The position numbers were made by a program, and so were the translations under genes. Source: an uncultured Candidatus Saccharibacteria bacterium (lineage in GTDB: Bacteria; Patescibacteriota; Minisyncoccia; Phycocordibacterales; JAKFXT01). From it: DNA of 64,000 nt. The DNA lies in NCBI GenBank assembly GCA_964541455.1, contig CAZIPS010000003.1:2663-66662 (forward strand), written 5' to 3'. Below, piece after piece: positions 3,406-64,000 of this stretch (position 1 is its first letter; the number at the start of each line of letters is the position of its first letter). The notes under the pieces are model-generated. The model saw only the letters and a list, made by a program, of their open reading frames with translations. It had not been told where the DNA came from and did not search any database.

Positions 3406-3418
3406 ATCATAAAAGTAA

Positions 3419-3450
3419 AACCCCTCCGCCACAAAGTGGCGGAGGGGTTT
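3419..3450 (+). terminator. Rho-independent terminator downstream of the NYN gene
   Basis: Inverted repeat CCCCTCCGCC ... GGCGGAGGGG followed by a T-run. Confidence 0.7.
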
Positions 3451-3523
3451 TACTTTTAACCTATTTTATGGCAGAATATAAAAAGTCAAATTTTGTTCCG
3501 GCCCTAAAAGGAGGGGTCACACA

Positions 3524-4726: not shown

Positions 4727-6871
4727 ATGCAGAAAAAAATATATAGTTGCGAGTGGGCAGGTAAAACATTGAGTGCTGAGTTTACTGATCTCGCTGATCA
4801 AACAAATGGGTCTGTCATGATCCGTTATGGAGCTACGGTTGTACTTGGTACCGTGGTCATGAGCAAACATGATAAAGAAGGGCTTGAGTATTTCCCCTTG
4901 ACTGTTGACTATGATGAAAAGTTTTATGCTTCAGGGCAAATATTAGGAAGCCAATATGTTCGCCGCGAAGGACGCCCCACCGAAGAAGCGATTCTTCGCG
5001 GTCGTATTGTTGATCGCACTATTCGTCCACTATTCCCCTCGCATATTCGCCGCGATGTGCATGTGGTTATCACAACGCTTGCTATCGACCAAGATGATCC
5101 TGATGTACTTGCAGTACTTGCTGCCTCCCTCTCACTTGCCATCTCTAATATCCCTTGGAATGGGCCGGTTGGAGCAGTGCGCATTAGCCGTAAAAGTGGA
5201 TCAACTGATTTTGAAATCAATCCCACCTTCAGCAATCGCCCCGATGATGAGATGGATATTGAAATGATCTGTTGCGGCAAAGAAGGCAATATCAATATGA
5301 TTGAAGTAGGAGCTAAGGAGATATCTGAAGCTGATATCGCTAAAGCATTCGATCTTGCAGCAACACATTTAAAAGTAATAGAGGATTTCCAACACAAAAT
5401 CATTGCCGAGCTTGGAAAAACAAAGCAAGAGTTTGTTAAAGAAGTACTTGGTAAAGAGGAGATTGCTTATTTTAATGAAATCATTACTCCAAAAATCGAT
5501 GCAGCCGTATTTTCTGGTCCTGGAGGAAAAGAAATCAATGCACTAAAAGATGAGTGGCTCACACTGTTTGCTGAAAAATTTCCAGAAGGGAAGAGGGTGC
5601 TTGCAGAAGAACACTATGAGGAAATTATTAACGAGGTTATTCATAAGGAAGCCATTCTTAATCAGCGCCGTGCTGATGGGCGAGGACTCGATGAAGTGCG
5701 CCCACTTTTTGCACAAGCGGGCGGTATTTCAGAAGCGCTCCATGGTACTGGTATTTTTTACCGTGGTGGAACACACATTTTCTCAGCGCTTACACTTGGA
5801 GGACCGGAAGACGCAATGACGCTCGACACTCTTATTGGCGTTGAGAAAAAACGTCACTTTATGCTCCACTACAACTTCCCACCTTTTTCTTCAGGTGAGA
5901 CCGGACGCATGGGGGGCACCAATCGTCGTATGATTGGACATGGTGCACTTGCTGAAAAAGCACTTAGAGCAGTCGTTCCTGAACGAGAAGTATTTCCCTA
6001 CACTATCCGTATTGTTTCTGAAAGCATGGCTTCAAATGGATCAACCTCGATGGGGTCAGTGTGTGCGGGAACATTAGCGCTCATGGATGGGGGAGTGCCT
6101 ATTACCGCCCCTGTTGCTGGTATTGCTTCAGGACTTATGATGGAAACGCCGGAGCATTACGCCCTCCTCACTGATATCCAAGGCCCAGAAGATCATCATG
6201 GGGACATGGATTTCAAAGTAGCGGGCACCACTAAAGGCGTTACTGCTATTCAAATGGATGTAAAAGTGGGCGGGATTCCAATTCCCATTCTTGTAGAAGC
6301 ACTCGAGAAAGCCCGTCTTGCACGACTCCATATTTTAAAGACTATGCTTGAAGCACTCCCTGAAGCACGCAAAGACATTTCACCAAGGGCACCAAAAATT
6401 GTAGTGCTAAAAATAAACAAAGAGCAGATTGGACTTGTTATTGGCAGCGGAGGAAAAACAATCAACGAGATCAGAGAAAAGACAGGAACTGAAATTACTA
6501 TTGAGGATGATGGAGTGGTGTATATCACCGGTAAAAACGGGGGGGCAGAAAAAGCCAAAGCGATTATTGAGGCTATGACCCATGAATACAGAGCAGGAGA
6601 AAAAGTGATGGGTACCATAACCAAAATAGTTGATTTTGGTGCTTTTGTTAAGTTTGGCTTTAACAACGAAGGCCTTGTGCACATTTCAGAAATTGCCCCT
6701 TTTCGCATAGAAGTGATAGGTAATCACTTAAAAGAGGGTATGGAGGTACCGCTTGTTATAAAAGGAACCGATGAGCGTGGGAAAATTTCCCTCTCCATAA
6801 AACAAGCTGATGCAACATTCGCAGAAAAGGTTGGCTTTGCCCCCAAGGCAACACCAGAGCAAAAGAATTAG
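4727..6871 (+). CDS. pnp: Polynucleotide phosphorylase (two RNase PH domains plus KH and S1)
   Basis: 714 aa with N-terminal PNPase motifs (FETGKLA-like core, GRPTEEAILRGRIVDRTIRPLFP), a C-terminal KH motif (GLVIGSGGKTINEI) and an S1 domain. Confidence 0.95.
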   Translation: MQKKIYSCEWAGKTLSAEFTDLADQTNGSVMIRYGATVVLGTVVMSKHDKEGLEYFPLTVDYDEKFYASGQILGSQYVRREGRPTEEAILRGRIVDRTIRPLFPSHIRRDVHVVITTLAIDQDDPDVLAVLAASLSLAISNIPWNGPVGAVRISRKSGSTDFEINPTFSNRPDDEMDIEMICCGKEGNINMIEVGAKEISEADIAKAFDLAATHLKVIEDFQHKIIAELGKTKQEFVKEVLGKEEIAYFNEIITPKIDAAVFSGPGGKEINALKDEWLTLFAEKFPEGKRVLAEEHYEEIINEVIHKEAILNQRRADGRGLDEVRPLFAQAGGISEALHGTGIFYRGGTHIFSALTLGGPEDAMTLDTLIGVEKKRHFMLHYNFPPFSSGETGRMGGTNRRMIGHGALAEKALRAVVPEREVFPYTIRIVSESMASNGSTSMGSVCAGTLALMDGGVPITAPVAGIASGLMMETPEHYALLTDIQGPEDHHGDMDFKVAGTTKGVTAIQMDVKVGGIPIPILVEALEKARLARLHILKTMLEALPEARKDISPRAPKIVVLKINKEQIGLVIGSGGKTINEIREKTGTEITIEDDGVVYITGKNGGAEKAKAIIEAMTHEYRAGEKVMGTITKIVDFGAFVKFGFNNEGLVHISEIAPFRIEVIGNHLKEGMEVPLVIKGTDERGKISLSIKQADATFAEKVGFAPKATPEQKN

Positions 6872-6931: not shown

Positions 6932-8293
6932 ATGGCTGATGATCTCCAGAAACTTGTAGACTCGACACTTAAAGGCAGTTTGTCGCAGGCTTCGTCGCTT
7001 CCTAAAGAAGAGGAAGATGAGGACTCGAACCTCACTGCCGAAGAAAAGAAAGCAAAAGCCGATCTCCGCAAGGAAATAGAGAAGGATAACGACCAACCCT
7101 CAAAACAAGGAGATCGTGGAGAGAGCATACACCCCCCCACACCACAAGAAATCGCTGAAGCAGTCCGCCTTCACCAGACAAGAGCCCCTGAGGGAAAAGA
7201 GATTAGTGCCGAAATCGTTCCTCGCCCAAAAACAATTGCTGATCTTCTACACCTTGAAGCCGAAGTTGCCAAAAATCCTCCCAAAGCCGAGCCTGCCGGA
7301 ACTTCGAAAATCCGTGAGGGGCTTAAGAACATTACTGTCACTCAAAAAACAGATTCATCAATACTCAAAAAAATACGCACATTCAAGACAGATGTGGCCG
7401 AAGCCATGACGACAGGGAAGAGTACCTATATAGGTATAGCCACCGCCCAACTCCTCAAAAATAAAAAGGAGGAGACCTCCCAAGAAACGGTCATTGATAA
7501 AGAAAAACCAGCTCCGCCTCCTCGAGCACCTGAACCTGTTTTTGAAAAAGAACCTAGCCACTCTTTTACCCCATTTTTTATAGGTATTAGCCTTCTGCTT
7601 ATACTTTCAGGGGTTGGTGGGGTGGTGTATATACAATACATTAAAAACAGTCCTATAAGTGGCCCCGTAACTGCTGCTATTGCTTCACATTTTGTCCCCA
7701 CGCAATTTGAAACGATTATAGAAACAGAGGGAAAGAATGCTTCATATTTGCGTTCGGCTGTTGCTGCAGAACGCAAAGACGCGCCTGGTGAACTCAACAA
7801 CCTTGGCAATATCAAACTCGTAGAGAGTAAAGATGCCACTCCACTTAAAGAACTCACTACTTCTGATTTTATCGCCTCCTTTGGCATGCGCCCACCCACT
7901 GAACTACTGCGCACCCTTGATCCAACTTTTATCCTTGGTATACATCGATTCCCGGCAAATCAATCGTTTCTTATTTTTAAAACCGACACCTACGAAACCG
8001 CACGAGACGCCCTACGAGAGTGGGAAGTCACTACACTTGAAAGTGATGTGGCAAAATTACTCCGCTCTCCGTCTGACTTTGATCTGACAAGTGCCTCGAG
8101 TTCAAACCTTGTGCGCCAACCCTTTAGTGATCGCGTACTTAAAAACAAAGACTGCCGCGTACTCGTCGACAAACAGGGGGATGTTATTTTCTTCTATACC
8201 TTTATCGATCGTACGTATATTGTGTTTGGTAGTGATCCTGAAACACTTGGCGCCGTACTCACTAGCCTTGCGAGCCGCAAAGTAACACAATAA
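6932..8293 (+). CDS. Hypothetical single-pass membrane protein with a charged Lys/Glu-rich N-terminus and a Pro-rich segment
   Basis: 453 aa. Low-complexity acidic/basic N-terminus, PAPPPRAPEP stretch, one TM helix (FFIGISLLLILSGVGGVVYI), and a C-terminal globular part with no recognisable family. Confidence 0.5.
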   Translation: MADDLQKLVDSTLKGSLSQASSLPKEEEDEDSNLTAEEKKAKADLRKEIEKDNDQPSKQGDRGESIHPPTPQEIAEAVRLHQTRAPEGKEISAEIVPRPKTIADLLHLEAEVAKNPPKAEPAGTSKIREGLKNITVTQKTDSSILKKIRTFKTDVAEAMTTGKSTYIGIATAQLLKNKKEETSQETVIDKEKPAPPPRAPEPVFEKEPSHSFTPFFIGISLLLILSGVGGVVYIQYIKNSPISGPVTAAIASHFVPTQFETIIETEGKNASYLRSAVAAERKDAPGELNNLGNIKLVESKDATPLKELTTSDFIASFGMRPPTELLRTLDPTFILGIHRFPANQSFLIFKTDTYETARDALREWEVTTLESDVAKLLRSPSDFDLTSASSSNLVRQPFSDRVLKNKDCRVLVDKQGDVIFFYTFIDRTYIVFGSDPETLGAVLTSLASRKVTQ

Positions 8294-8301
8294 GCCTTTC
8301 A

Positions 8302-8721
8302 TTGCTTTTACTTTCTGCTTTGCTATCATGGCCATATATGACCATAGATATCCTACATTTTAAAACAAAGTTACTTGAGGAAATGCAGACGCTCGAAGAG
8401 GAGCTTACTTCTATTGGAGAGCGTAATCCAGAAAATAAGAATGATTGGCAGGCAAAGCCATCAGACCTTGAAGCAAATCCTATTGATGAAATTGAGCAGG
8501 CGGATGCCTTCGAAGAATTCGAGGCAAACACTGCCATCTTAAAGCAACTTGAGATTCGCTATAACGATGTAAAACTTGCTCTTAAGAGAATTGAAGAAGG
8601 GGCTTATGGTACTTGTGAAGTGTGTGCCACCCCTATTGAAACAGAAAGACTCGAAGCCAACCCCGCGGCCCGCACCTGCATTGCACACAAAGAAAAAGAA
8701 GCCGAACTTCGTACCGAATAA
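8302..8721 (+). CDS. DksA/TraR-family C4 zinc-finger protein
   Basis: C-terminal CEVCATPIETERLEANPAARTCIAH (CxxC...CxxC) preceded by a coiled-coil region. The true start may be the internal Met near 8338. Confidence 0.7.
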   Translation: MLLLSALLSWPYMTIDILHFKTKLLEEMQTLEEELTSIGERNPENKNDWQAKPSDLEANPIDEIEQADAFEEFEANTAILKQLEIRYNDVKLALKRIEEGAYGTCEVCATPIETERLEANPAARTCIAHKEKEAELRTE

Positions 8722-8727
8722 GTCCTC

Positions 8728-10275
8728 ATGAGTAGCACGTTTGCGAAAGTTCACAGTGCCCAAACATTTCTCCTCGAAAGTTATATTGTTGATTGTGAAG
8801 TAGACCTTTCTTTAGGACTACATGCTTTCACTATTGTCGGACTCCCTGACAAGGCAGTGGAAGAAGCACGCGATCGTATTTCTGCTGCTATTAAGCATTC
8901 CGGTTTTGAATCACCAAAATCAAAAAACCAGAAAGTGGTTATTTCTCTCGCCCCCGCCCATCTTAAAAAAGAAGGTCCATCTTTTGATGTCCCTATGGCA
9001 CTTTCCTACCTTCTTGCAAGCGGTGAAATGCATTTTGATCCTCAACAAAAACTTTTTATTGGTGAACTTTCGCTCAACGGCGATATTCGAGGAGTACATG
9101 GAGTACTCCCACTTGTCCAAAAAGCCCTACAAAAAGGGTTTAAAGAAGTCTACGTTCCAAAAGAAAATGCCGAAGAGGCTGCACTTATTCGTGGTATTAC
9201 TATCTATGGTGTAGAAAACCTCAAGACACTTGTTGAACATCTTCATACGCCAACAAAAGGAGAGACGGGGGTAGCACATAAAAAGATACTTCCACAAAAA
9301 GAAACTGTTATTACTCCTTCCACACACCCGCATACAACAGATATAGCTGATATCAAAGGACAAGAAAGTGCCAAACGTGGACTTCTTATTGCGGCCGCAG
9401 GCGGGCACAACATCGCACTCTTCGGCCCGGCTGGCACTGGTAAAACAATGCTTGCTCGAGCAATGCAGGGAATACTGCCAACACTTTCCTATGAAGAAAT
9501 CCTTGAAGTAACGAGTATCTATTCAGTTGCTGGATTACTTAAGGAGCCATACATTACGACAACACCTTATCGCGCACCGCATCACACTGCTTCTTATGTA
9601 TCGCTTGTAGGTGGTGGTGCCTTTCCAAAACCAGGAGAAGTAACATTGGCTCATAGAGGAGTTCTTTTTATGGATGAATTCCCTGAATTCGAAAGGCGCG
9701 TTATTGATGCGCTAAGACAGCCTCTTGAAGATAGAGTTGTTTCGATCAATAGACAAAGAGGGTCTGGCGTATTTCCTGCAAATTTTATTTTAATCGTGGC
9801 CTTTAACCCATGTCCTTGTGGGAATTATGGTTCTCAAAAACCTTGCCGCTGTAATCCAGGGGACATCATACGCTACCAAAAGAAAATCTCGGGACCCATC
9901 GCAGACCGTATCGATATGTGGATTGAAGTTCCTCTTCTTGCATACGACACACTTACCCAAAAACAACATACCGACGACTCGGCCACCTATACAAAGAAAA
10001 TAATTGCCGCAAAAGAAAGGGCGGGGAAGCGCTATAGTGCGCTAGGCAAGACTCGTTCAGCGGATCTTTCAGCAAAAGAATTAGAAATGTATGTCCCTCT
10101 ACATGAGACAGTTCGAAAACTTCTCATACGCTCATCAGAAAAACTAATGCTTTCTGCCAGAAGCTACCACAAAGTAATAAAAGTAGCGCGTACCATAGCA
10201 GATCTTGAAGAAAGTAAGAACATTACCGAAGCCCATCTCCTTGAAGCGCTGCAATATCGTCAGAAAATACACTAG
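8728..10275 (+). CDS. YifB/ComM family Mg-chelatase-like AAA+ ATPase
   Basis: 515 aa with an N-terminal Lon-like domain, Walker A (LFGPAGTGKTMLARA), a zinc-ribbon CPCGNYGS...CRC segment and the C-terminal ComM domain. Confidence 0.9.
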   Translation: MSSTFAKVHSAQTFLLESYIVDCEVDLSLGLHAFTIVGLPDKAVEEARDRISAAIKHSGFESPKSKNQKVVISLAPAHLKKEGPSFDVPMALSYLLASGEMHFDPQQKLFIGELSLNGDIRGVHGVLPLVQKALQKGFKEVYVPKENAEEAALIRGITIYGVENLKTLVEHLHTPTKGETGVAHKKILPQKETVITPSTHPHTTDIADIKGQESAKRGLLIAAAGGHNIALFGPAGTGKTMLARAMQGILPTLSYEEILEVTSIYSVAGLLKEPYITTTPYRAPHHTASYVSLVGGGAFPKPGEVTLAHRGVLFMDEFPEFERRVIDALRQPLEDRVVSINRQRGSGVFPANFILIVAFNPCPCGNYGSQKPCRCNPGDIIRYQKKISGPIADRIDMWIEVPLLAYDTLTQKQHTDDSATYTKKIIAAKERAGKRYSALGKTRSADLSAKELEMYVPLHETVRKLLIRSSEKLMLSARSYHKVIKVARTIADLEESKNITEAHLLEALQYRQKIH

Positions 10276-10287
10276 CCGAAAAAAAAG

Positions 10288-10325
10288 AAACACCGGCGAT
10301 TACTCATCGCCGGTGTTTCTTTTTT
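10288..10325. terminator. Bidirectional intrinsic terminator between the convergent comM-like and M23 peptidase genes
   Basis: AAACACCGGCGAT-TACTC-ATCGCCGGTGTTT with A-runs on one side and T-runs on the other. Confidence 0.75.
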
Positions 10326-10329
10326 TTAT

Positions 10330-39464: not shown

Positions 39465-40658
39465 ATGTTTTTAGGAGAGAAAAAAAGAAAAATAATTACA
39501 GAGAGGGAGGCTATTGAGGAAGTACTCACAAGAGGGGTTGATAAACTTGTAAACGAGGAAGTGTTGAGGGGGGCATTGTCAGAAGGGCAGCCACTTCGTA
39601 TTAAACTAGGTATAGATCCAACAAGCCCACATATCCATATTGGACGGGCTGTAGTATTGCGTAAGCTTAAGGCATTTCAAGACTTAGGGCACACCCCGGT
39701 ATTTATTGTGGGCGATTTTACGGGGGTTATTGGGGATACATCGGACAAAGATGCAGAAAGACCAATGCTCACTCCAGAAAAAATAAAAGAAAACCTAAAG
39801 AGCTATTTTGCCCAAGCAGGGAAAATTATAGATCTAAAAAAAGCAGAGACACATTACAACTCAACATGGCTTTCAAAACTTACCTACAAAGAGATAGGGC
39901 AACAGGCTGACTGGGTTAGTGTTGCCGATTTTATCTCACGCGACGTTATTAAAAGAAGACTCGATCAGGGTTCGCGGGTGTCGCTCCGAGAAATGCTCTA
40001 CCCCCTAATGCAAGGATATGATTCAGTGGCAGTTAAAGCCGATGTTGAGCTTGGGGGGGTTGATCAGTGGTTTAACCTCCTTTCAGGGAGAGTAATGCAG
40101 GAGCACTATAAACAAAAACCACAGAACATTCTTACCACCAAACTTCTTATGGGGCTTGATGGGCGCAAAATGAGCTCAAGTTGGGGGAACACGATAAATA
40201 TCACCGAAACACCAAATGAAATGTTTGGGAAAACAATGAGTCTAAAAGATGAATTGCTCTCTGAATACTTCACACTTGCAACTGACCTTAAAGAGGAGGC
40301 CATTAAAGAAGCCCTTCTTAAGGGTCCGCGTGATGCTAAGGTAATACTGGCACGCACGCTTGTCGCCCAATATCATGGAGAAAAAGAAGCAGAAAAGGCC
40401 GAACACTATTTCATCGAAACATTTAGTCAAAAAAAGATTCCAGACAATGTGCCTTCTATAGAAGGAAAGGAGGGAGAGGTGTTAGGGGATATATTAGTAC
40501 GTGGGGGCTTCCTCCCTTCAAAGTCAGAATGGACGAGGTTGGTGGACCAAGGCGCCGTAGTGCTCCTCCCAGAAAACAAAGTGACCGACAGTAAAGAAAT
40601 TGCTGTTAAAGGGGCTGTATATAAAATAGGAAAGCATCGATTTGTAAAAATCATATAA
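39465..40658 (+). CDS. tyrS: Tyrosine--tRNA ligase
   Basis: 397 aa with a HIGH-like motif (PHIHIGRAV), a KMSKS-like KMSSS motif and a C-terminal S4-like domain. Confidence 0.9.
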   Translation: MFLGEKKRKIITEREAIEEVLTRGVDKLVNEEVLRGALSEGQPLRIKLGIDPTSPHIHIGRAVVLRKLKAFQDLGHTPVFIVGDFTGVIGDTSDKDAERPMLTPEKIKENLKSYFAQAGKIIDLKKAETHYNSTWLSKLTYKEIGQQADWVSVADFISRDVIKRRLDQGSRVSLREMLYPLMQGYDSVAVKADVELGGVDQWFNLLSGRVMQEHYKQKPQNILTTKLLMGLDGRKMSSSWGNTINITETPNEMFGKTMSLKDELLSEYFTLATDLKEEAIKEALLKGPRDAKVILARTLVAQYHGEKEAEKAEHYFIETFSQKKIPDNVPSIEGKEGEVLGDILVRGGFLPSKSEWTRLVDQGAVVLLPENKVTDSKEIAVKGAVYKIGKHRFVKII

Positions 40659-40664
40659 ATATAA

Positions 40665-40694
40665 AAATCCCCCACAGAAGTGGGGGATTTTTAT
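40665..40694. terminator. Bidirectional intrinsic terminator between tyrS and the convergent acidic-protein gene
   Basis: ATCCCCCAC-AGAAG-TGGGGGAT flanked by A- and T-runs. Confidence 0.75.
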
Positions 40695-40700
40695 ATTGTA

Positions 40701-50906: not shown

Positions 50907-51070
50907 GGGGTACAGGGATCTTTCGCTGTACGAATAGTATAGCTTCCCCATTTTTTGTAACAGGAATTTGTCGTCACGGATAATTTTGTTTTCGTCAAAA
51001 CAAAATTTCCTTGACCACGACTCGCGGTTTTGCGTACTCGCAAAACATCGCTCCGTCTCGGACTTGTAGT

Positions 51071-51098
51071 AAAAAACAGTGCGCAGGCACTGTTTTTT
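51071..51098. terminator. Palindromic terminator hairpin downstream of tRNA-Lys; an identical element recurs at 63283-63320
   Basis: AAAAAACAGTGC-GCAG-GCACTGTTTTTT. The reverse-complement-identical copy follows tRNA-Arg(TCT). Confidence 0.75.
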
Positions 51099-51104
51099 CT
51101 CAAG

Positions 51105-51176
51105 TCCGCCCAGCAGGGATCGAACCTGCGACCAATTGCTTAAAAGGCAACTGCTCTACCACTGAGCTATGGGCGG
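51105..51176 (-). tRNA. tRNA-Lys (anticodon UUU)
   Basis: Manual cloverleaf: acceptor CCGCCCA/UGGGCGG, D-arm GCUC-AGUGGUA-GAGC, anticodon loop CUUUUAA, T-arm GCAGGUUCGAUCCCUGC. Confidence 0.85.
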
Positions 51177-56273: not shown

Positions 56274-56846
56274 CTACCCTCGACCTAGTTGCTTTAGGGC
56301 CTCGCGAATAATGGCTTGGGTATCATTTGAGGAGGGGGTGATTGACTTCAATACTTCGCGTATATCGCGTTCACTATAGCCAAGGGACATAAGTGCAAGA
56401 AGTGCGTCAGACTCTTCTTTAAGGGCTCGGCCGGAGTTTTCTTCTATAAGACCAACTTTTTCTTTAAGTTCAAGCACAATCTTTTCGGCTGTTTTTTTGC
56501 CAATGCCTGATACTTTAGTGAGATACCCTGAATCCCCTGTAGTGATAGCTTGGCGTAAGGTAGGGAGTGCAACTGCCGAGAGAATGGCGAGCGCTGAACG
56601 AGGACCGATGCCGGAAATGGTAATAAGGAGTTCAAAAAAGGAAAGCTCTTCTTGGCTCTCAAAACCAAAGAGGTCAAGGGCGTTTTCGCGCACCGCCAAA
56701 TAGGTAAAAAGTGCTACAGATTCCTGCTCTTTATGCACCCTAAGTGCATCTTCGGTAACAAAGACTTTATAGCCGACACCTCCCACAAGGAGGGTGAGGG
56801 ACTTTTCGGTGTGTGCGATAACAGTGCCTGAAAGGTAGCCAATCAT
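56274..56846 (-). CDS. ruvA: Holliday junction DNA helicase RuvA
   Basis: 190 aa starting MIGYLSGTV with an OB fold, HhH motifs (ISGIGPRSALAIL, VSGIGKKTAEKIVLEL) and a C-terminal RuvB-interaction domain. Confidence 0.9.
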   Translation of the reverse strand: MIGYLSGTVIAHTEKSLTLLVGGVGYKVFVTEDALRVHKEQESVALFTYLAVRENALDLFGFESQEELSFFELLITISGIGPRSALAILSAVALPTLRQAITTGDSGYLTKVSGIGKKTAEKIVLELKEKVGLIEENSGRALKEESDALLALMSLGYSERDIREVLKSITPSSNDTQAIIREALKQLGRG

Positions 56847-56924
56847 GCGCTTAGTATAGCGTATTTAAGGAAGGACTGTCCCGTATTGCTTTTTGAGGGG
56901 GTTTTAGGTAATATCCTTTTACCT

Positions 56925-57188
56925 ATGGCAATAACTAAATCAGCAAAACGGGCAATCGGAGTTGCGGCACGTCGCCGTGTTTTCAACCTTCGTCGTAAGG
57001 ATGATCTCCGTACGACCCTTAAGGAGGTGAAGAAGTTGGTGGCGGCAGGCAAAAAGGCAGAGGCAACTAAAGCACTCGACGCAGCGTATAAGGCACTCGA
57101 CAAATCAGCTAAGACTAAGCTTATCAAGAAGGGGACAGCAGATCGAAAGAAGAGCCGGCTCGCTAAGCAGATTGCGAAGATCAAGTAA
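56925..57188 (+). CDS. rpsT: 30S ribosomal protein S20
   Basis: MAITKSAKRAIGVAARRRVFNLRRKDDLRTTLKEVKKLVAAGKKAEATKALDAAYKALDKSAKTKLIKKGTADRKKSRLAKQIAKIK, followed by terminator CCCCTTTCGGGG-TTTTTT. The ORF track begins upstream at 56886. Confidence 0.9.
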   Translation: MAITKSAKRAIGVAARRRVFNLRRKDDLRTTLKEVKKLVAAGKKAEATKALDAAYKALDKSAKTKLIKKGTADRKKSRLAKQIAKIK

Positions 57189-57368
57189 AAAATCCCCTTT
57201 CGGGGTTTTTTATTTTGGTCACAAGTCATTAAGTATTTTATTTCGCCCTGCAAGCAGGTTTCATAAAATACTAAGTGCTCGCGACCCCACCTCATATCGC
57301 TAAAGCGATATATTCCGGTTCACAAAAACTAAAAATGTGAAGCAGTTCACATTTTCTTAACGTTTTTG

Positions 57369-57440
57369 TGCTCCCGGTTGGAATTGAACCAGCATCGTCT
57401 CCTTCGGAGGGAGATATTCTATCCGTTGAACTACGGGAGC
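57369..57440 (-). tRNA. tRNA-Arg (anticodon CCG)
   Basis: Manual fold: acceptor GCUCCCG/CGGGAGC, anticodon stem UCUCC/GGAGA, loop CUCCGAA, T-loop GGUUCAAUUCC. A terminator hairpin AAAATGTGAA-GCAG-TTCACATTTT lies immediately downstream. Confidence 0.8.
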
Positions 57441-57447
57441 TTTATCC

Positions 57448-57885
57448 CTAGTGGTGTGCGAGGGACATAATAGCAATATAGCGAATATAGAACTCAAAAG
57501 TGACTGCCGCGATTAAGATAAGGATAAAAAAGGCACCAATTTTCTTATACCCATGTTCTCTAAAAAGGGCAATGAGGGCATAGATGAAAGAGAGGGCATA
57601 GCCGAAGATAAAGCCCCACGAAAGATGTCTAAAGAGTGGAGTAAAAATATCTTTAATAAAAAAAAGACTCATGAGAAAGCAAGTACCTGCAAAGAAGAAG
57701 AAAAAAGAAGCAAAGAAAAGAGGGAGAGATCGTCTTTGAGGTTTCATAGAGATAGTATAGCGTATGTTGGTTAAAAAAAGGGCTAGTAGTGCGAGGGAAG
57801 CACCCATTACACGGACAGTACACCTTTTGTGTCTGACTTTGCCAAAAAGCTCGCTCCCATATACCCAAGGCTTTCGATCTTGCAC
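57448..57885 (-). CDS. Hypothetical membrane protein (145 aa)
   Basis: 3-4 predicted TM helices. No recognisable family. The start is uncertain. Confidence 0.35.
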   Translation of the reverse strand: MQDRKPWVYGSELFGKVRHKRCTVRVMGASLALLALFLTNIRYTISMKPQRRSLPLFFASFFFFFAGTCFLMSLFFIKDIFTPLFRHLSWGFIFGYALSFIYALIALFREHGYKKIGAFFILILIAAVTFEFYIRYIAIMSLAHH

Positions 57886-58039
57886 GGAGTGTGTATGGGC
57901 ATAAGGAATCTCGACCTACGGTCGCAGGTGGTTTTCTATTTTTTTGCAATTTGATTGCTCAAAAATAAAGAAAACCCTTTCGATTCCTGCATGCAAGCAA
58001 AGCAGTTTGCTTGCTCTCGGGGAACAAAATGTTCCATTT

Positions 58040-59547: not shown

Positions 59548-59604
59548 TGAAGTGAGTGTTGTTAGATCACAAAGCGGAGGCGGTGGGTCAACTAAGTCTT
59601 ACAG

Positions 59605-62298: not shown

Positions 62299-62841
62299 AT
62301 GGAACTATTTAAACGAACAAAACGTAAGCTAGTTATTACAGGGGTGACCGCAGTCCTTTTCTGTGGAGCTTTTGCACTTGTGGTGTATTACTTTACTACG
62401 GTGATGAGTGAGGTGGGTGATTTGGAAACTAAAGTTGAGCAAGCGAAGCAAGATGAAGAACAGTTGGTGCTTGTAAAGAAAACACTTCAGGACGTCGAAG
62501 GGAATAAGGACCTCCTCGATGCATTATTCATCACTGCTGATAACGAAGCAGACTTTGTTAAATCCATCGAAGGGTTAGCAAGTAGTACCAATGTAAGTTT
62601 AGATATCACCTCACTTCGCCATGATCCAGGGCCAGCAAAGACAAGGTTTGAGTATGTGGCTATGCAAGGAAATGTTGAAGGCTCTATAGAGCAGGTATAT
62701 CATTTTATGCATCTGCTCGGACGTTTTGGAAAAGCGCTTGAGATAAAGCAATTGCAGTTTGAAGTAATGCCGAATGATACAAAAAAGAAAGAAAATAAAT
62801 GGCGCGGCACCTTTGGCGTGAGGAGTCTAAAAATAAAATAA
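62299..62841 (+). CDS. PilO-like bitopic membrane protein
   Basis: 180 aa with an N-terminal TM, a coiled-coil and a C-terminal alpha/beta domain. Position after pilN. Confidence 0.55.
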   Translation: MELFKRTKRKLVITGVTAVLFCGAFALVVYYFTTVMSEVGDLETKVEQAKQDEEQLVLVKKTLQDVEGNKDLLDALFITADNEADFVKSIEGLASSTNVSLDITSLRHDPGPAKTRFEYVAMQGNVEGSIEQVYHFMHLLGRFGKALEIKQLQFEVMPNDTKKKENKWRGTFGVRSLKIK

Positions 62842-62843
62842 TT

Positions 62844-63176
62844 ATGGGAGCCTATATCGAAAAAATAAAAAAGATACTAAAGAGGGAAAAGAGGGTAGAG
62901 GAGAAAAAGCCTTCACGAAACCCCTATCGAGACTGGGCGATTATTTTTGTAAGTAGCGTGACCGTATGCCTCCTTCTTATGGGCGGAGCGGTGTATGTTT
63001 TCTTTGGTATACGAACTGGTGCTCTCCCCGGAGCAGATGATGTTAAGAGGGCAGTTACAGAAAAAAAGTTTAACGAAAAAAATCTCACTCATATGGTAGA
63101 ACTTTTCAAAAAAAGAGCCGAGGAATATGAGGCGTTTAAAACTGAAAAGGTGCAGATTGCTGATCCTTCGCTCTAA
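62844..63176 (+). CDS. Small bitopic membrane protein (about 110 aa), possibly a PilP/Q-replacing accessory of the pilMNO operon
   Basis: One TM helix (WAIIFVSSVTVCLLLMGGAVYVFF), downstream of pilO. The function is inferred from position only. Confidence 0.35.
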   Translation: MGAYIEKIKKILKREKRVEEKKPSRNPYRDWAIIFVSSVTVCLLLMGGAVYVFFGIRTGALPGADDVKRAVTEKKFNEKNLTHMVELFKKRAEEYEAFKTEKVQIADPSL

Positions 63177-63206
63177 TGGTAGCCTAACAACGTTAAGGAT
63201 ATATTC

Positions 63207-63281
63207 CTCCCCGTAGTTCAATGGATAGAACAGGAGACTTCTAAGCTTCTGATCGTGGTTCGATTCCACGCGGGGGGACCA
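63207..63281 (+). tRNA. tRNA-Arg (anticodon UCU), CCA encoded
   Basis: Acceptor CUCCCCG/CGGGGGG, D-arm GUUC-AAUGGAUA-GAAC, anticodon loop CUUCUAA, T-loop GGUUCGAUUCC, 3' ACCA. Confidence 0.8.
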
Positions 63282-63282
63282 T

Positions 63283-63320
63283 ACAAGAAAAAACAGTGCC
63301 TGCGCACTGTTTTTTCTTGT
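63283..63320. terminator. Palindromic terminator hairpin after tRNA-Arg(UCU); same element as 51071-51098
   Basis: ACAAGAAAAAACAGTGC-CTGC-GCACTGTTTTTTCTTGT. Confidence 0.75.
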
Positions 63321-63546
63321 ATGGTCCGGCCGCAGCTATATTTTGCTAGCGAGCAAAATTGTGCGAGGCGGGGTCGCGAAAAAAGCGAGTGGCGACGAGC
63401 TTTTATTCGTGACACAGAGAAGTAAAGAAACAAAGCGTCCACGCGGAACATTGCAAGCGACGGCGCGCAATGTATCTGTGACACAGAGTGGGGGGGTTCA
63501 CAGAGATAGTAAAAAACCGCCCGAAGGCGGTCGGTGAGTGGAGGGG

Positions 63547-63747
63547 TTATTCTCGAAATTCCCTCCACCAGATGATGGTCCAGGCGAGGCTTCCTATGAC
63601 GAAAGCCCCGGCGCTTATTGAAAGGAACCATACAAGTTCAGCTCCTTTGGGGGCAAGGATGCTGCCTGCCAAAAGCCCCAGAAAAAGGGAAAGCACAATG
63701 GCCGAGACGTACGGGCCCCACGCTTCCCCACGAATTATGTGTCTCAT
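63547..63747 (-). CDS. Small two-TM membrane protein, GC-rich cassette E (66 aa from ATG; the ORF track extends to an upstream TTG at 63801)
   Basis: MRHIIRGEAWGPYVSAIVLSLFLGLLAGSILAPKGAELVWFLSISAGAFVIGSLAWTIIWWREFRE. SD GGAGGA 5 nt upstream, sigma70-like promoter and a terminator CCGCC-TTCG-GGCGG-TTTTTT after the stop. Confidence 0.55.
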   Translation of the reverse strand: MRHIIRGEAWGPYVSAIVLSLFLGLLAGSILAPKGAELVWFLSISAGAFVIGSLAWTIIWWREFRE

Positions 63748-63773
63748 ACAGGTCCTCCATATTGTCTTCGGGC

Positions 63774-63801
63774 AGCATACTCTTTCTATCTGTCTAGTCA
63801 A
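63774..63801 (-). promoter_or_regulatory. Sigma70-like promoter of cassette E (TTGACT-16-TATGCT on the minus strand)
   Basis: Reverse complement of 63796-63801 is TTGACT and of 63774-63779 is TATGCT. The ORF track uses this TTG as an alternative start, but the ATG at 63747 with SD fits better. Confidence 0.5.
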
Positions 63802-63833
63802 ACAAAAGCCAAGGAAATTGCTATAATTCCCTT

Positions 63834-64000
63834 ATGTCTAAAGTTACTCGTGTTTTATCTATTCTTGCTGGTATCATCCTCATCTGCCTCTTTTTAGGTA
63901 TTACCTTTGGAAGGGCGAAGTTAATGGAGGGGCTTGTAACGCTCGCGCTCATCTATCTTTCGGTGCTTGTGTGGCGCACCAAACAAAAACTTTGGCTTGC
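63834..64000 (+). CDS. Partial ORF (5' end only) encoding a membrane protein, truncated by the window edge
   Basis: ATG at 63834 with TATAAT 6 nt upstream (63823-63828), so it may be leaderless. Translation MSKVTRVLSILAGIILICLFLGITFGRAKLMEGLVTLALIYLSVLVW... is hydrophobic. Confidence 0.4.
   Translation, partial: MSKVTRVLSILAGIILICLFLGITFGRAKLMEGLVTLALIYLSVLVWRTKQKLWL

Follow-up and report, generated by a model that had tools for sequence, protein, structure and literature searches.

A probable tRNA-flanking palindromic repeat or recombination scar beside an orphan membrane-protein gene in a Saccharibacteria-like genome

In a 64,000-nucleotide stretch of DNA from an uncultured Candidatus Saccharibacteria bacterium (contig CAZIPS010000003.1 of GenBank assembly GCA_964541455.1; hereafter the window), about 180 bp of noncoding DNA rich in guanine and cytosine (GC) lie between a transfer RNA (tRNA) gene, tRNA-Arg(TCT), and a small minus-strand gene for a protein of 66 amino acids (aa). 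An earlier reading made from the letters alone (the sequence-only reading) had proposed that this 180-bp stretch might encode a small structured RNA and that, together with the small gene, it might form a type I toxin-antitoxin locus. What is the stretch, and does it belong to the gene at its side? We favour the view that it is a tRNA-flanking palindromic repeat or recombination scar that lies beside an orphan membrane-protein gene, an interpretation to which we give a probability of roughly 0.55. The features that the sequence-only reading had listed (a promoter, a GGAGGA motif, the small open reading frame (ORF), its terminator, a palindrome and an 11-mer present twice) were all found where it had placed them, on the minus strand, and the stretch is indeed GC-rich, with a GC content of 0.50–0.55 compared with 0.37–0.47 nearby.

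Comparison among copies shows that the stretch consists of a ~150-nt repeat module that flanks tRNA genes, present once in full and once truncated. Read toward the tRNA 3′ end, the aligned copies run in the order box 1, hairpin 1, TTCC plus box 2, hairpin 2, box 3, hairpin 3 and tRNA 3′ end, where box 1 is TGTGGTCACRRATAAT-like and contains the 11-mer, box 2 is GCGACCCCGCCTCGC and box 3 is ATAGCTCCGGCCGGAC-like. The complete, proximal copy spans 63276–63419. Its hairpin 3 (63276–63327, both strands) is a perfect 24-bp palindrome composed of an A-run, a GC core and a T-run, with a plus-strand loop of CTGC (GCAG on the minus strand); the foot of this hairpin is formed by the last bases of the tRNA-Arg(TCT) gene (63207–63281, plus strand; ARAGORN, and 56.1 bits to the Rfam tRNA model). 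Box 3 (63328–63339, minus strand), which reads ATAGCTGCGGCC, is conserved across the aligned copies. Hairpin 2 (63340–63359, both strands) is the palindrome singled out by the sequence-only reading and consists of a perfect 8-bp stem, ATTTTGCT-AGCG-AGCAAAAT. Box 2 (63360–63380, minus strand; TTCGCGACCCCGCCTCGCACA) is the most conserved sequence block of the module and is kept in a species whose PilM protein is only 56% identical (locus L011). Hairpin 1 of the proximal copy (63381–63404, both strands) pairs AAAAGC with GCTTTT around the loop TCGTCGCCACTC, and the proximal box 1 (63405–63419, minus strand) holds the first 11-mer (63409–63419).

The truncated distal copy (63449–63488, minus strand; nhmmer E = 4e-4) retains box 1′ (63473–63488), which holds the second 11-mer, and hairpin 1′ (63449–63472), and lacks box 2, hairpin 2 and hairpin 3. 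At the junction of the two tandem copies lies a relic of the tRNA-Arg(TCT) 3′ end, TCCACGCGG, in tRNA orientation (63438–63446, plus strand), and beyond the distal copy a degenerate third box-1-like motif, CTCTGTGAAC (63496–63505, minus strand), was picked up from a direct-repeat listing and by reading the sequence. The repeated 11-mer is box 1 of two successive module copies: GTGACACAGAG has exactly two exact occurrences in the window, at 63409 and 63478, and when one mismatch is allowed it occurs three times (0.43 expected; three reached in 0 of 100 shuffles).

To take a census of the module, we used blastn of the stretch against the window and the related loci, nhmmer, and a covariance model built from nine copies. 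Three full-length copies were found in the window: at tRNA-Arg(TCT) (63274–63422, minus strand; covariance model 147.6 bits), convergent on tRNA-Lys(TTT) (50964–51110, plus strand; covariance model 143.5 bits, nhmmer 2e-38, also blastn), and, in diverged form, between the rpsT terminator and tRNA-Arg(CCG) (57209–57372, plus strand; covariance model 40.4 bits, E = 3e-9). None of the three methods found a further full copy in the 64 kb. The related loci comprise contigs identical to the window (L001–L003), a sister strain (L004, L005), a divergent strain (L006), a related species with 84% identical PilM (L008, L014–L017) and more distant species (L018, L009, L011, L012); the GTDB genomes that hold relatives of the pilM gene are titled, for example, “Candidatus Saccharibacteria” or “Patescibacteria group” metagenome-assembled genomes. 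Among these, module copies flank tRNA-Arg(GCG) in L004, L008 and L009, and tRNA-Val in L008, L005 and L011. All strong copies adjoin a tRNA gene, and most abut either the tRNA 3′ end or a displaced copy of that end. At the tRNA-Arg(TCT) site itself, the part of the module beside the tRNA is nearly invariant among relatives, while the distal part in L006 is longer and different: L006 carries two complete tandem copies, with a full second copy where that of the window is truncated. Hairpin 3 is kept, with compensatory changes, in L008 and L018. A weak covariance-model match beside tRNA-His in L011 (9081–9211, minus strand; E = 0.013) is possibly a further, diverged copy.

The boxes are restricted to modules, and we rejected a role as DNA-uptake sequence on that ground; a degenerate tRNA was rejected as well, as D-arm and T-arm features are missing. 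A combined pattern of box 2, box 3 and the A-run had 0 matches in IMG/VR viral contigs. The Rfam scan that the sequence-only reading had called for returned nothing within 63334–63510 at E ≤ 10. Across the window only tRNAs scored above the gathering score. The sole match of the tRNA-Lys copy was TD-1, whose gathering score of 64.5 exceeds the 19.7 bits obtained. Our literature search for a tRNA-flanking repeat or small RNA (sRNA) in Saccharibacteria or Patescibacteria found nothing relevant, and the module appears to be undescribed.

We measured covariation on the nine-copy alignment and folded the hairpins of 16 copies. Standard pairs filled 88% of pair cells, as against 45–54% when the partners were slid by one to three columns, and double (two-sided) changes were present in 33 of the 42 stem pairs; the observed values were reached by 0 of 500 shuffles. 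In hairpin 2, double changes among copies occurred at all eight pairs and one-sided changes at none, and hairpins 1 and 2 showed zero one-sided (G-U type) changes. Over the 16 folded copies the ratio of Watson-Crick to G-U pairs was 466:4 on one strand and 469:6 on the other (~99% Watson-Crick). Because the stems are perfect palindromes without strand asymmetry, we read the constraint as acting at the level of DNA, or on transcripts of both strands, and not on one RNA. The folding z-scores of the stretch, −3.2 and −2.6 on the two strands, are due to the presence of the hairpins. The structured RNA of the sequence-only reading is borne out in part: the hairpins are conserved with compensatory changes, while their symmetry on both strands and the lack of an Rfam match speak against such an RNA. 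That reading had also considered an outcome in which neither conserved structure nor covariation would be seen and the ORF would be conserved nowhere; we found stems that covary and an ORF that is conserved.

The stem of hairpin 3 contains AAAAAA … TTTTTT and folds at about −40 kcal/mol on either strand. By sequence criteria it is a bidirectional intrinsic terminator common to the tRNA and the convergent gene. It resembles such terminators in its A-run, GC-rich perfect stem and T-run and in reading alike on both strands, and it differs in that a GCAG loop, the preceding boxes and two extra hairpins occur only at tRNA-flank hairpins, where the orientation of the GCAG loop is constant relative to the tRNA. 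Elsewhere in the window, perfect palindromes of 18–23 bp with A-run and T-run arms and unrelated to tRNAs lie at 3410–3458, 10279–10327 and 40658–40697; these are probably bidirectional terminators too, seemingly a habit of this genome.

The module flanks also carry remnants of tRNA ends and differ from strain to strain. TCCACGCGG is a direct repeat, found at 63265–63273 within the T-stem and acceptor part of tRNA-Arg(TCT) and again at 63438–63446. A lone 9-mer relic could be chance, but at the homologous junction the piece of tRNA end measures 13 nt in L006 and 15 nt in L008, and the same CGCTT sequence follows in both. At tRNA-Arg(GCG) in L009 and tRNA-Val in L011 the order is module, displaced tRNA 3′ fragment, more sequence and then the real tRNA, and inverted copies of tRNA 3′ halves are also present in these flanks. 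Such tRNA gene fragments are known to arise widely from the integration of mobile elements (PMC9897764). In the sister strain (L004 and L005) there is a single 11-mer, and the 69 bp between the two 11-mers of the window are missing. Conversely, the tRNA-Arg(GCG) site bears a module in L004 and none in the window. In its central part, the tRNA-Arg(TCT) copy of the window shares 87% identity with the L008 tRNA-Arg(GCG) copy as against 77% with its own orthologue, and the L004 tRNA-Arg(GCG) copy is 92% identical to the L008 tRNA-Arg(TCT) copy. Segments of the module have therefore been swapped among non-orthologous loci, which indicates ectopic exchange.

Several further observations concern the same tRNA flanks. 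In the 3′ flank of tRNA-Arg(GCG), the full module of L004 (5664–5815) is replaced in the window (57890–58039) by a hairpin-rich sequence that contains an inverted tRNA T-arm copy, TTCGATTCCTGC, and a GCAG-loop hairpin at 57993–58014. A direct copy of the tRNA-Ser(TGA) 3′ end, AGCGGAGGCGGTG, lies at 59573–59590, ~30 nt beyond the real tRNA end, so tRNA-end duplication is not confined to module-bearing tRNAs. A 100-aa ORF with a resolvase domain in L018 (4941–5243) has directly upstream of it a module copy joined to a 3′ fragment of tRNA-Val (4822–4900), and in L011 ORFs resembling HNH and LAGLIDADG endonucleases (5399–5722 and 8103–8840) lie among tRNA genes; these resolvase-domain and endonuclease-like ORFs are possible agents of local rearrangements. 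The region repeatedly shows small membrane ORFs with tRNAs and modules at their flanks: in the window, the space between tRNA-Arg(CCG) and tRNA-Arg(GCG) holds another small membrane-protein gene (57448–57885, minus strand; ~99 aa in the L001 call). A 150-aa ORF at 56843–57295 (minus strand) is spurious; it covers rpsT (plus strand, ~56925–57188) and starts within a module copy.

Judged by comparative evidence, the 66-aa ORF is a real, conserved and selected coding gene with its own predicted promoter, ribosome-binding site and terminator, elements that the sequence-only reading had listed. A promoter-like TTGACT-16-TATGCT found by sequence scan (63801–63774, minus strand) is the sole such site on the minus strand within 62700–64000, and the ribosome-binding site GGAGGA (63758–63753) lies six bases ahead of the ATG at 63747. 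The gene occupies 63547–63747 including its stop (codons to 63550, stop 63549–63547) and is followed by an intrinsic terminator, CCGCC-TTCG-GGCGG with a UUCG tetraloop and a T-run (63511–63532, minus strand), that is kept in L006. The promoter and ribosome-binding site region (63753–63801) is ~97% identical between the window and L006, and the L008 counterpart promoter is TTGACT-17-TATCCT. A Kyte-Doolittle profile gave two hydrophobic segments, in keeping with the hydrophobic hairpin protein described before and with two predicted transmembrane segments.

The small protein is 98% identical in the sister strain (L004, L005), 62% identical in L006 across 66 aligned residues (67% in the local alignment of the search), and 47% identical (E = 2e-14) to a 70-aa version in L008. 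Its ORF is syntenic and free of frameshifts in L004, L006 and L008/L014, and the invariant residues are an N-terminal M-R…R-G-E-x-W-x-P and an L-A-W near the C-terminus. Between the window and L006, the nonsynonymous (dN) and synonymous (dS) substitution rates are 0.227 and 0.80 (omega = 0.28), while dS of the flanking neighbour gene is only 0.12–0.19; on these rates the small gene evolves fast yet under purifying selection. The family forms only two clusters among 5.8 billion proteins. When a profile hidden Markov model was run against 1.84 billion representatives, the L008 form was the only addition, the longer matches being repetitive or low-complexity proteins, and translated scans of metagenome and GTDB contigs found no further relatives. 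Searches of proteins, metagenomes and GTDB found none outside a narrow Patescibacteria/Saccharibacteria-like clade. None of Pfam, PHROGs, NCBIfam and PADLOC gave a credible match for the 66-aa protein, its 70-aa relative or a 106-aa neighbour in related loci (below); the best PHROG hit of the 66-aa protein had E = 0.034, to a family of unknown function. By these searches, the small protein is a lineage-restricted orphan membrane protein with two predicted transmembrane segments.

An exact look-up of the 66-aa product returned no match because the gene callers behind the ENA annotation did not call the ORF; they miss the real gene and call a spurious 137-aa ORF. We rejected this 137-aa ORF (63218–63631, minus strand), which is broken by indels in relatives, runs antisense through the tRNA gene and spans the repeat, and likewise a 64-aa plus-strand ORF (63343–63537) that is broken by indels in relatives.

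The surroundings of the gene vary between species. In L008 (9266–9586, minus strand) and L014 (3591–3911, minus strand), the conserved promoter is followed first by a 106-aa ORF, which matches no family, and then by the small ORF. The two ORFs form a two-gene unit; the 106-aa ORF is missing from the window lineage. The small ORF is absent from L018. In L011, tRNA-Arg(TCT) and tRNA-Val(TAC) are adjacent with nothing between them, and in L012 a different small membrane ORF lies between these two tRNA genes; the small gene therefore sits in a variable islet between them. The identity of L006 to the window is ~97% in the promoter and the neighbour gene, 65–78% in the ORF, <50% in the distal noncoding part and 93–100% in the proximal noncoding part. 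Given this mosaic profile and the low dS of the neighbour, a divergent allele appears to have displaced a segment of ~330 bp whose flanks stayed conserved.

One correction concerns the gene on the far side of the promoter: it does not share the orientation of the small ORF and is a divergent plus-strand gene that starts at 63834 (region 63819–64000) and lies outside the module. It encodes 247 aa in full-length contigs (window 63834–64000; full gene L002 2818–3561), with a membrane-embedded N-terminus that weakly matches DUF6804 and a C-terminal part with weak Mrr_cat_2 and PD-(D/E)xK-like matches (motif PDLILRN…IECKFR in L008). TGCTATAAT (63819–63827) ends six bases before its ATG, which suggests a leaderless mRNA. 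In L022, a tyrosine integrase and a MazE-like gene lie near a homologue of the 247-aa protein.

Is the stretch nonetheless linked to the small gene? In a type I toxin-antitoxin pair, the 66-aa membrane protein would be the toxin and the adjacent structured segment would encode the antitoxin RNA. A small hydrophobic protein gene with a good promoter and ribosome-binding site does adjoin a structured noncoding segment here, and in Escherichia coli repeated intergenic modules, the SIB (or QUAD) and LDR repeats, proved to be type I toxin-antitoxin loci, which we count in favour of this idea. Like those repeats (~150–500 nt, several copies), the module is intergenic and multi-copy, with a small hydrophobic ORF nearby in one instance; it differs from them in that no small ORF is conserved within the module, that the 66-aa gene is single-copy and outside the repeat, and that neither antisense overlap nor complementarity was found. 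As a generic repeat of tRNA flanks, the segment recurs at no fewer than four other tRNA genes without such an ORF (tRNA-Lys, tRNA-Arg(CCG), tRNA-Arg(GCG) and tRNA-Val), and L018 keeps its tRNA-Arg(TCT) copy although it lacks the ORF. It neither overlaps the ORF nor complements its mRNA beyond shuffled sequences: by RNAduplex energy against the mRNA, 163 of 200 shuffles did as well as or better than one strand of 63334–63510, and 91 of 200 did so for the other. A 10-nt match between hairpin 3 and the ORF (63316–63325 and 63627–63636) is not conserved in L008 and was treated as chance. No promoter-like site was found on either strand of 63334–63520, a strong terminator separates segment and ORF, and the ORF comes second, behind the 106-aa ORF, in its two-gene unit in L008 and L014. 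The protein is small and hydrophobic, though with its 66 aa and two hydrophobic segments it departs from the architecture of a typical type I toxin (under 60 aa, one transmembrane segment), and its dN/dS is typical of an ordinary membrane protein. Because the stretch consists of copies of a repeat found beside several tRNA genes, a toxin-antitoxin pair is unlikely, to the point that we regard it as barely credible; the 180-bp stretch is not the antisense partner of the small gene.

The sequence-only reading had also called the small protein holin-like, and it could accordingly be a phage-derived lysis or membrane protein on an integrated element. Its two transmembrane segments, charged N-terminus and short charged C-terminus would fit, as would the variable islet between tRNA-Arg(TCT) and tRNA-Val(TAC), empty in L011 and occupied by a different small membrane ORF in L012, and the integrase near the homologue of the 247-aa neighbour in L022. 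The neighbours of the gene are pilM-like pilus-assembly genes, tRNAs and the 247-aa membrane/nuclease-like protein; within several kb there is neither an endolysin or spanin nor any further phage gene, the four databases searched gave no credible match to a toxin or holin family, and at least three lineages have kept the gene at this site by vertical descent. We consider a holin or phage origin very improbable.

A different alternative would keep the stretch as an RNA gene without tying it to the small protein. The modules would then be sibling sRNA genes transcribed toward the tRNA, each RNA comprising hairpins 1 and 2 and C-rich single-stranded boxes and ending at hairpin 3, and the boxes would possibly pair with G-rich ribosome-binding sites. 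The covarying stems with conserved loops and boxes, the bracketing of each copy by two terminators like a separate transcription unit, a fold more stable than shuffles (z = −3.2), and a GCAG loop that always points the same way relative to the tRNA are all consistent with this, and in the tRNA-Lys copy box 1 holds a sigma-70-like TTGTAA-18-GATAAT. This site is matched by nothing promoter-like in the other two window copies, and at several loci box 1 lies a few to ~20 bases from the T-run of the upstream terminator, so close behind it that an independent promoter would hardly fit. If box 1 were a −10 element, the transcript would start inside hairpin 1, which then could not form in the RNA. G-U pairs make up ~1% of pairs on either strand and one-sided changes are absent from hairpins 1 and 2, which is unusual for selection on a one-strand RNA, and Rfam has no match. 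An sRNA family is thus, in our estimate, an unlikely account of the module, with clearly better prospects than either reading of the small gene as toxin or holin.

Of the known systems, the closest to the module in its working would be an intergenic palindromic repeat joined to a tRNA attachment (att) scar, with a bidirectional terminator included. The module shares with tRNA att scars and tRNA gene fragments the flanking direct repeats, which copy the tRNA 3′ end with a break in the T-arm, and the piling up of units in tandem at a tRNA 3′ end (PMC9897764) in a state that varies by strain. It differs from them in its unit of ~150–165 nt with no integrase and no cargo, in the recurrence of one unit at five or more tRNA genes with differing 3′ ends, and in its covarying perfect hairpins, which are normally missing from att arms. 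We found no integrase or recombinase and no element-sized cargo between the tRNA-end repeats at the locus, and of the features of integrative-element scars that were tested, the module has only the direct repeat of the tRNA 3′ end.

Intergenic palindromic repeat elements such as REP/BIME, BOX and Correia are the other comparison. Like these, the module consists of short, multi-copy, modular palindromic units between convergent genes, in which stems persist while sequences vary and copies recombine and differ by strain. Unlike them, it is tied strictly to tRNA 3′ flanks at low copy number (3 in 64 kb), has no GTAG head or terminal inverted repeats, and is built of three hairpins and three boxes that take in the tRNA terminator. 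Identity with REP/BIME was rejected, since units of ~150 nt with three perfect hairpins stand against many copies of a 20–40-nt imperfect palindrome with a GTAG head; no transposase was found associated with the module at the loci examined, RAYT not having been searched for genome-wide. An integron attC site was likewise rejected, the aligned copies having no R″/R′ boxes (RYYYAAC … GTTRRRY) and stems that are perfect and not imperfect with extrahelical bases. So was an IS91-type insertion after GTTC, for which the breakpoints differ between tRNAs.

Together, we favour two independent features, an autonomous small gene and a tRNA-flanking palindromic repeat that acts at the level of DNA, or on both strands, as a repeat or recombination element, at odds only a little better than even. 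In such a scheme the boxes and hairpins 1 and 2 would act on DNA, or equally on both strands. The tandem copies with their relics of tRNA 3′ ends may have arisen by integration-type duplication at the tRNA T-arm, and later deletions may have used short homologies: CCGCG would join hairpin 1′ to the tRNA relic, and the 11-mer would account for the deletion in L004, where the 69-bp indel lies between the two 11-mer repeats. Copies would trade segments by ectopic recombination, and conserved flanks, the promoter on one side and the module on the other, may have allowed the allele replacement of the ORF in L006.

Several observations weigh against this preferred explanation. Apart from the resolvase fragment in L018 and the homing-endonuclease-like ORFs in L011, the loci examined hold no integrase or transposase, and the ~165 nt between a tRNA and its displaced 3′ end are too few to make up an integrative element of the usual kind. 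Conservation of the three boxes, and of the GCAG loop in hairpin 3, extends across species with PilM only 56% identical, which points to a sequence-specific and possibly strand-specific function that the explanation does not name, and the sigma-70-like site in the tRNA-Lys copy also counts on this side. Finally, the double substitutions in the stems represent fewer independent events than the cell counts suggest, because the distinct copies number only about a dozen and loci have stem alleles in common.

A more specific proposal, which we offer as speculation and consider rather doubtful, is that the module is an undescribed miniature element of a Saccharibacteria-like clade of the Candidate Phyla Radiation (CPR) that targets tRNA 3′ ends and brings along a replacement tRNA 3′ end and a bidirectional terminator. 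It would spread, or gene-convert, between tRNA genes by hairpin-dependent recombination (through single-strand DNA or cruciforms), its boxes would be protein-recognition sites, and it would provide portable homology for the swapping of small membrane-protein genes; a closely related alternative, within the same estimate, is a family of sibling sRNAs.

The genomes of CPR bacteria (Patescibacteria) measure ~1 Mb and are thought to be poor in repetitive or mobile DNA. The module is of moderate relevance to CPR genome dynamics. For annotation, the locus is a case in which gene callers place a spurious ORF over a repeat and a tRNA and overlook a real gene of 66 aa. A conserved, modular, hairpin-rich repeat that is attached to several tRNA genes, bears relics of tRNA ends and differs by strain would give a handle on how streamlined CPR genomes recombine, and also on how these episymbionts exchange small membrane-protein genes that evolve fast and are candidates for host interaction.

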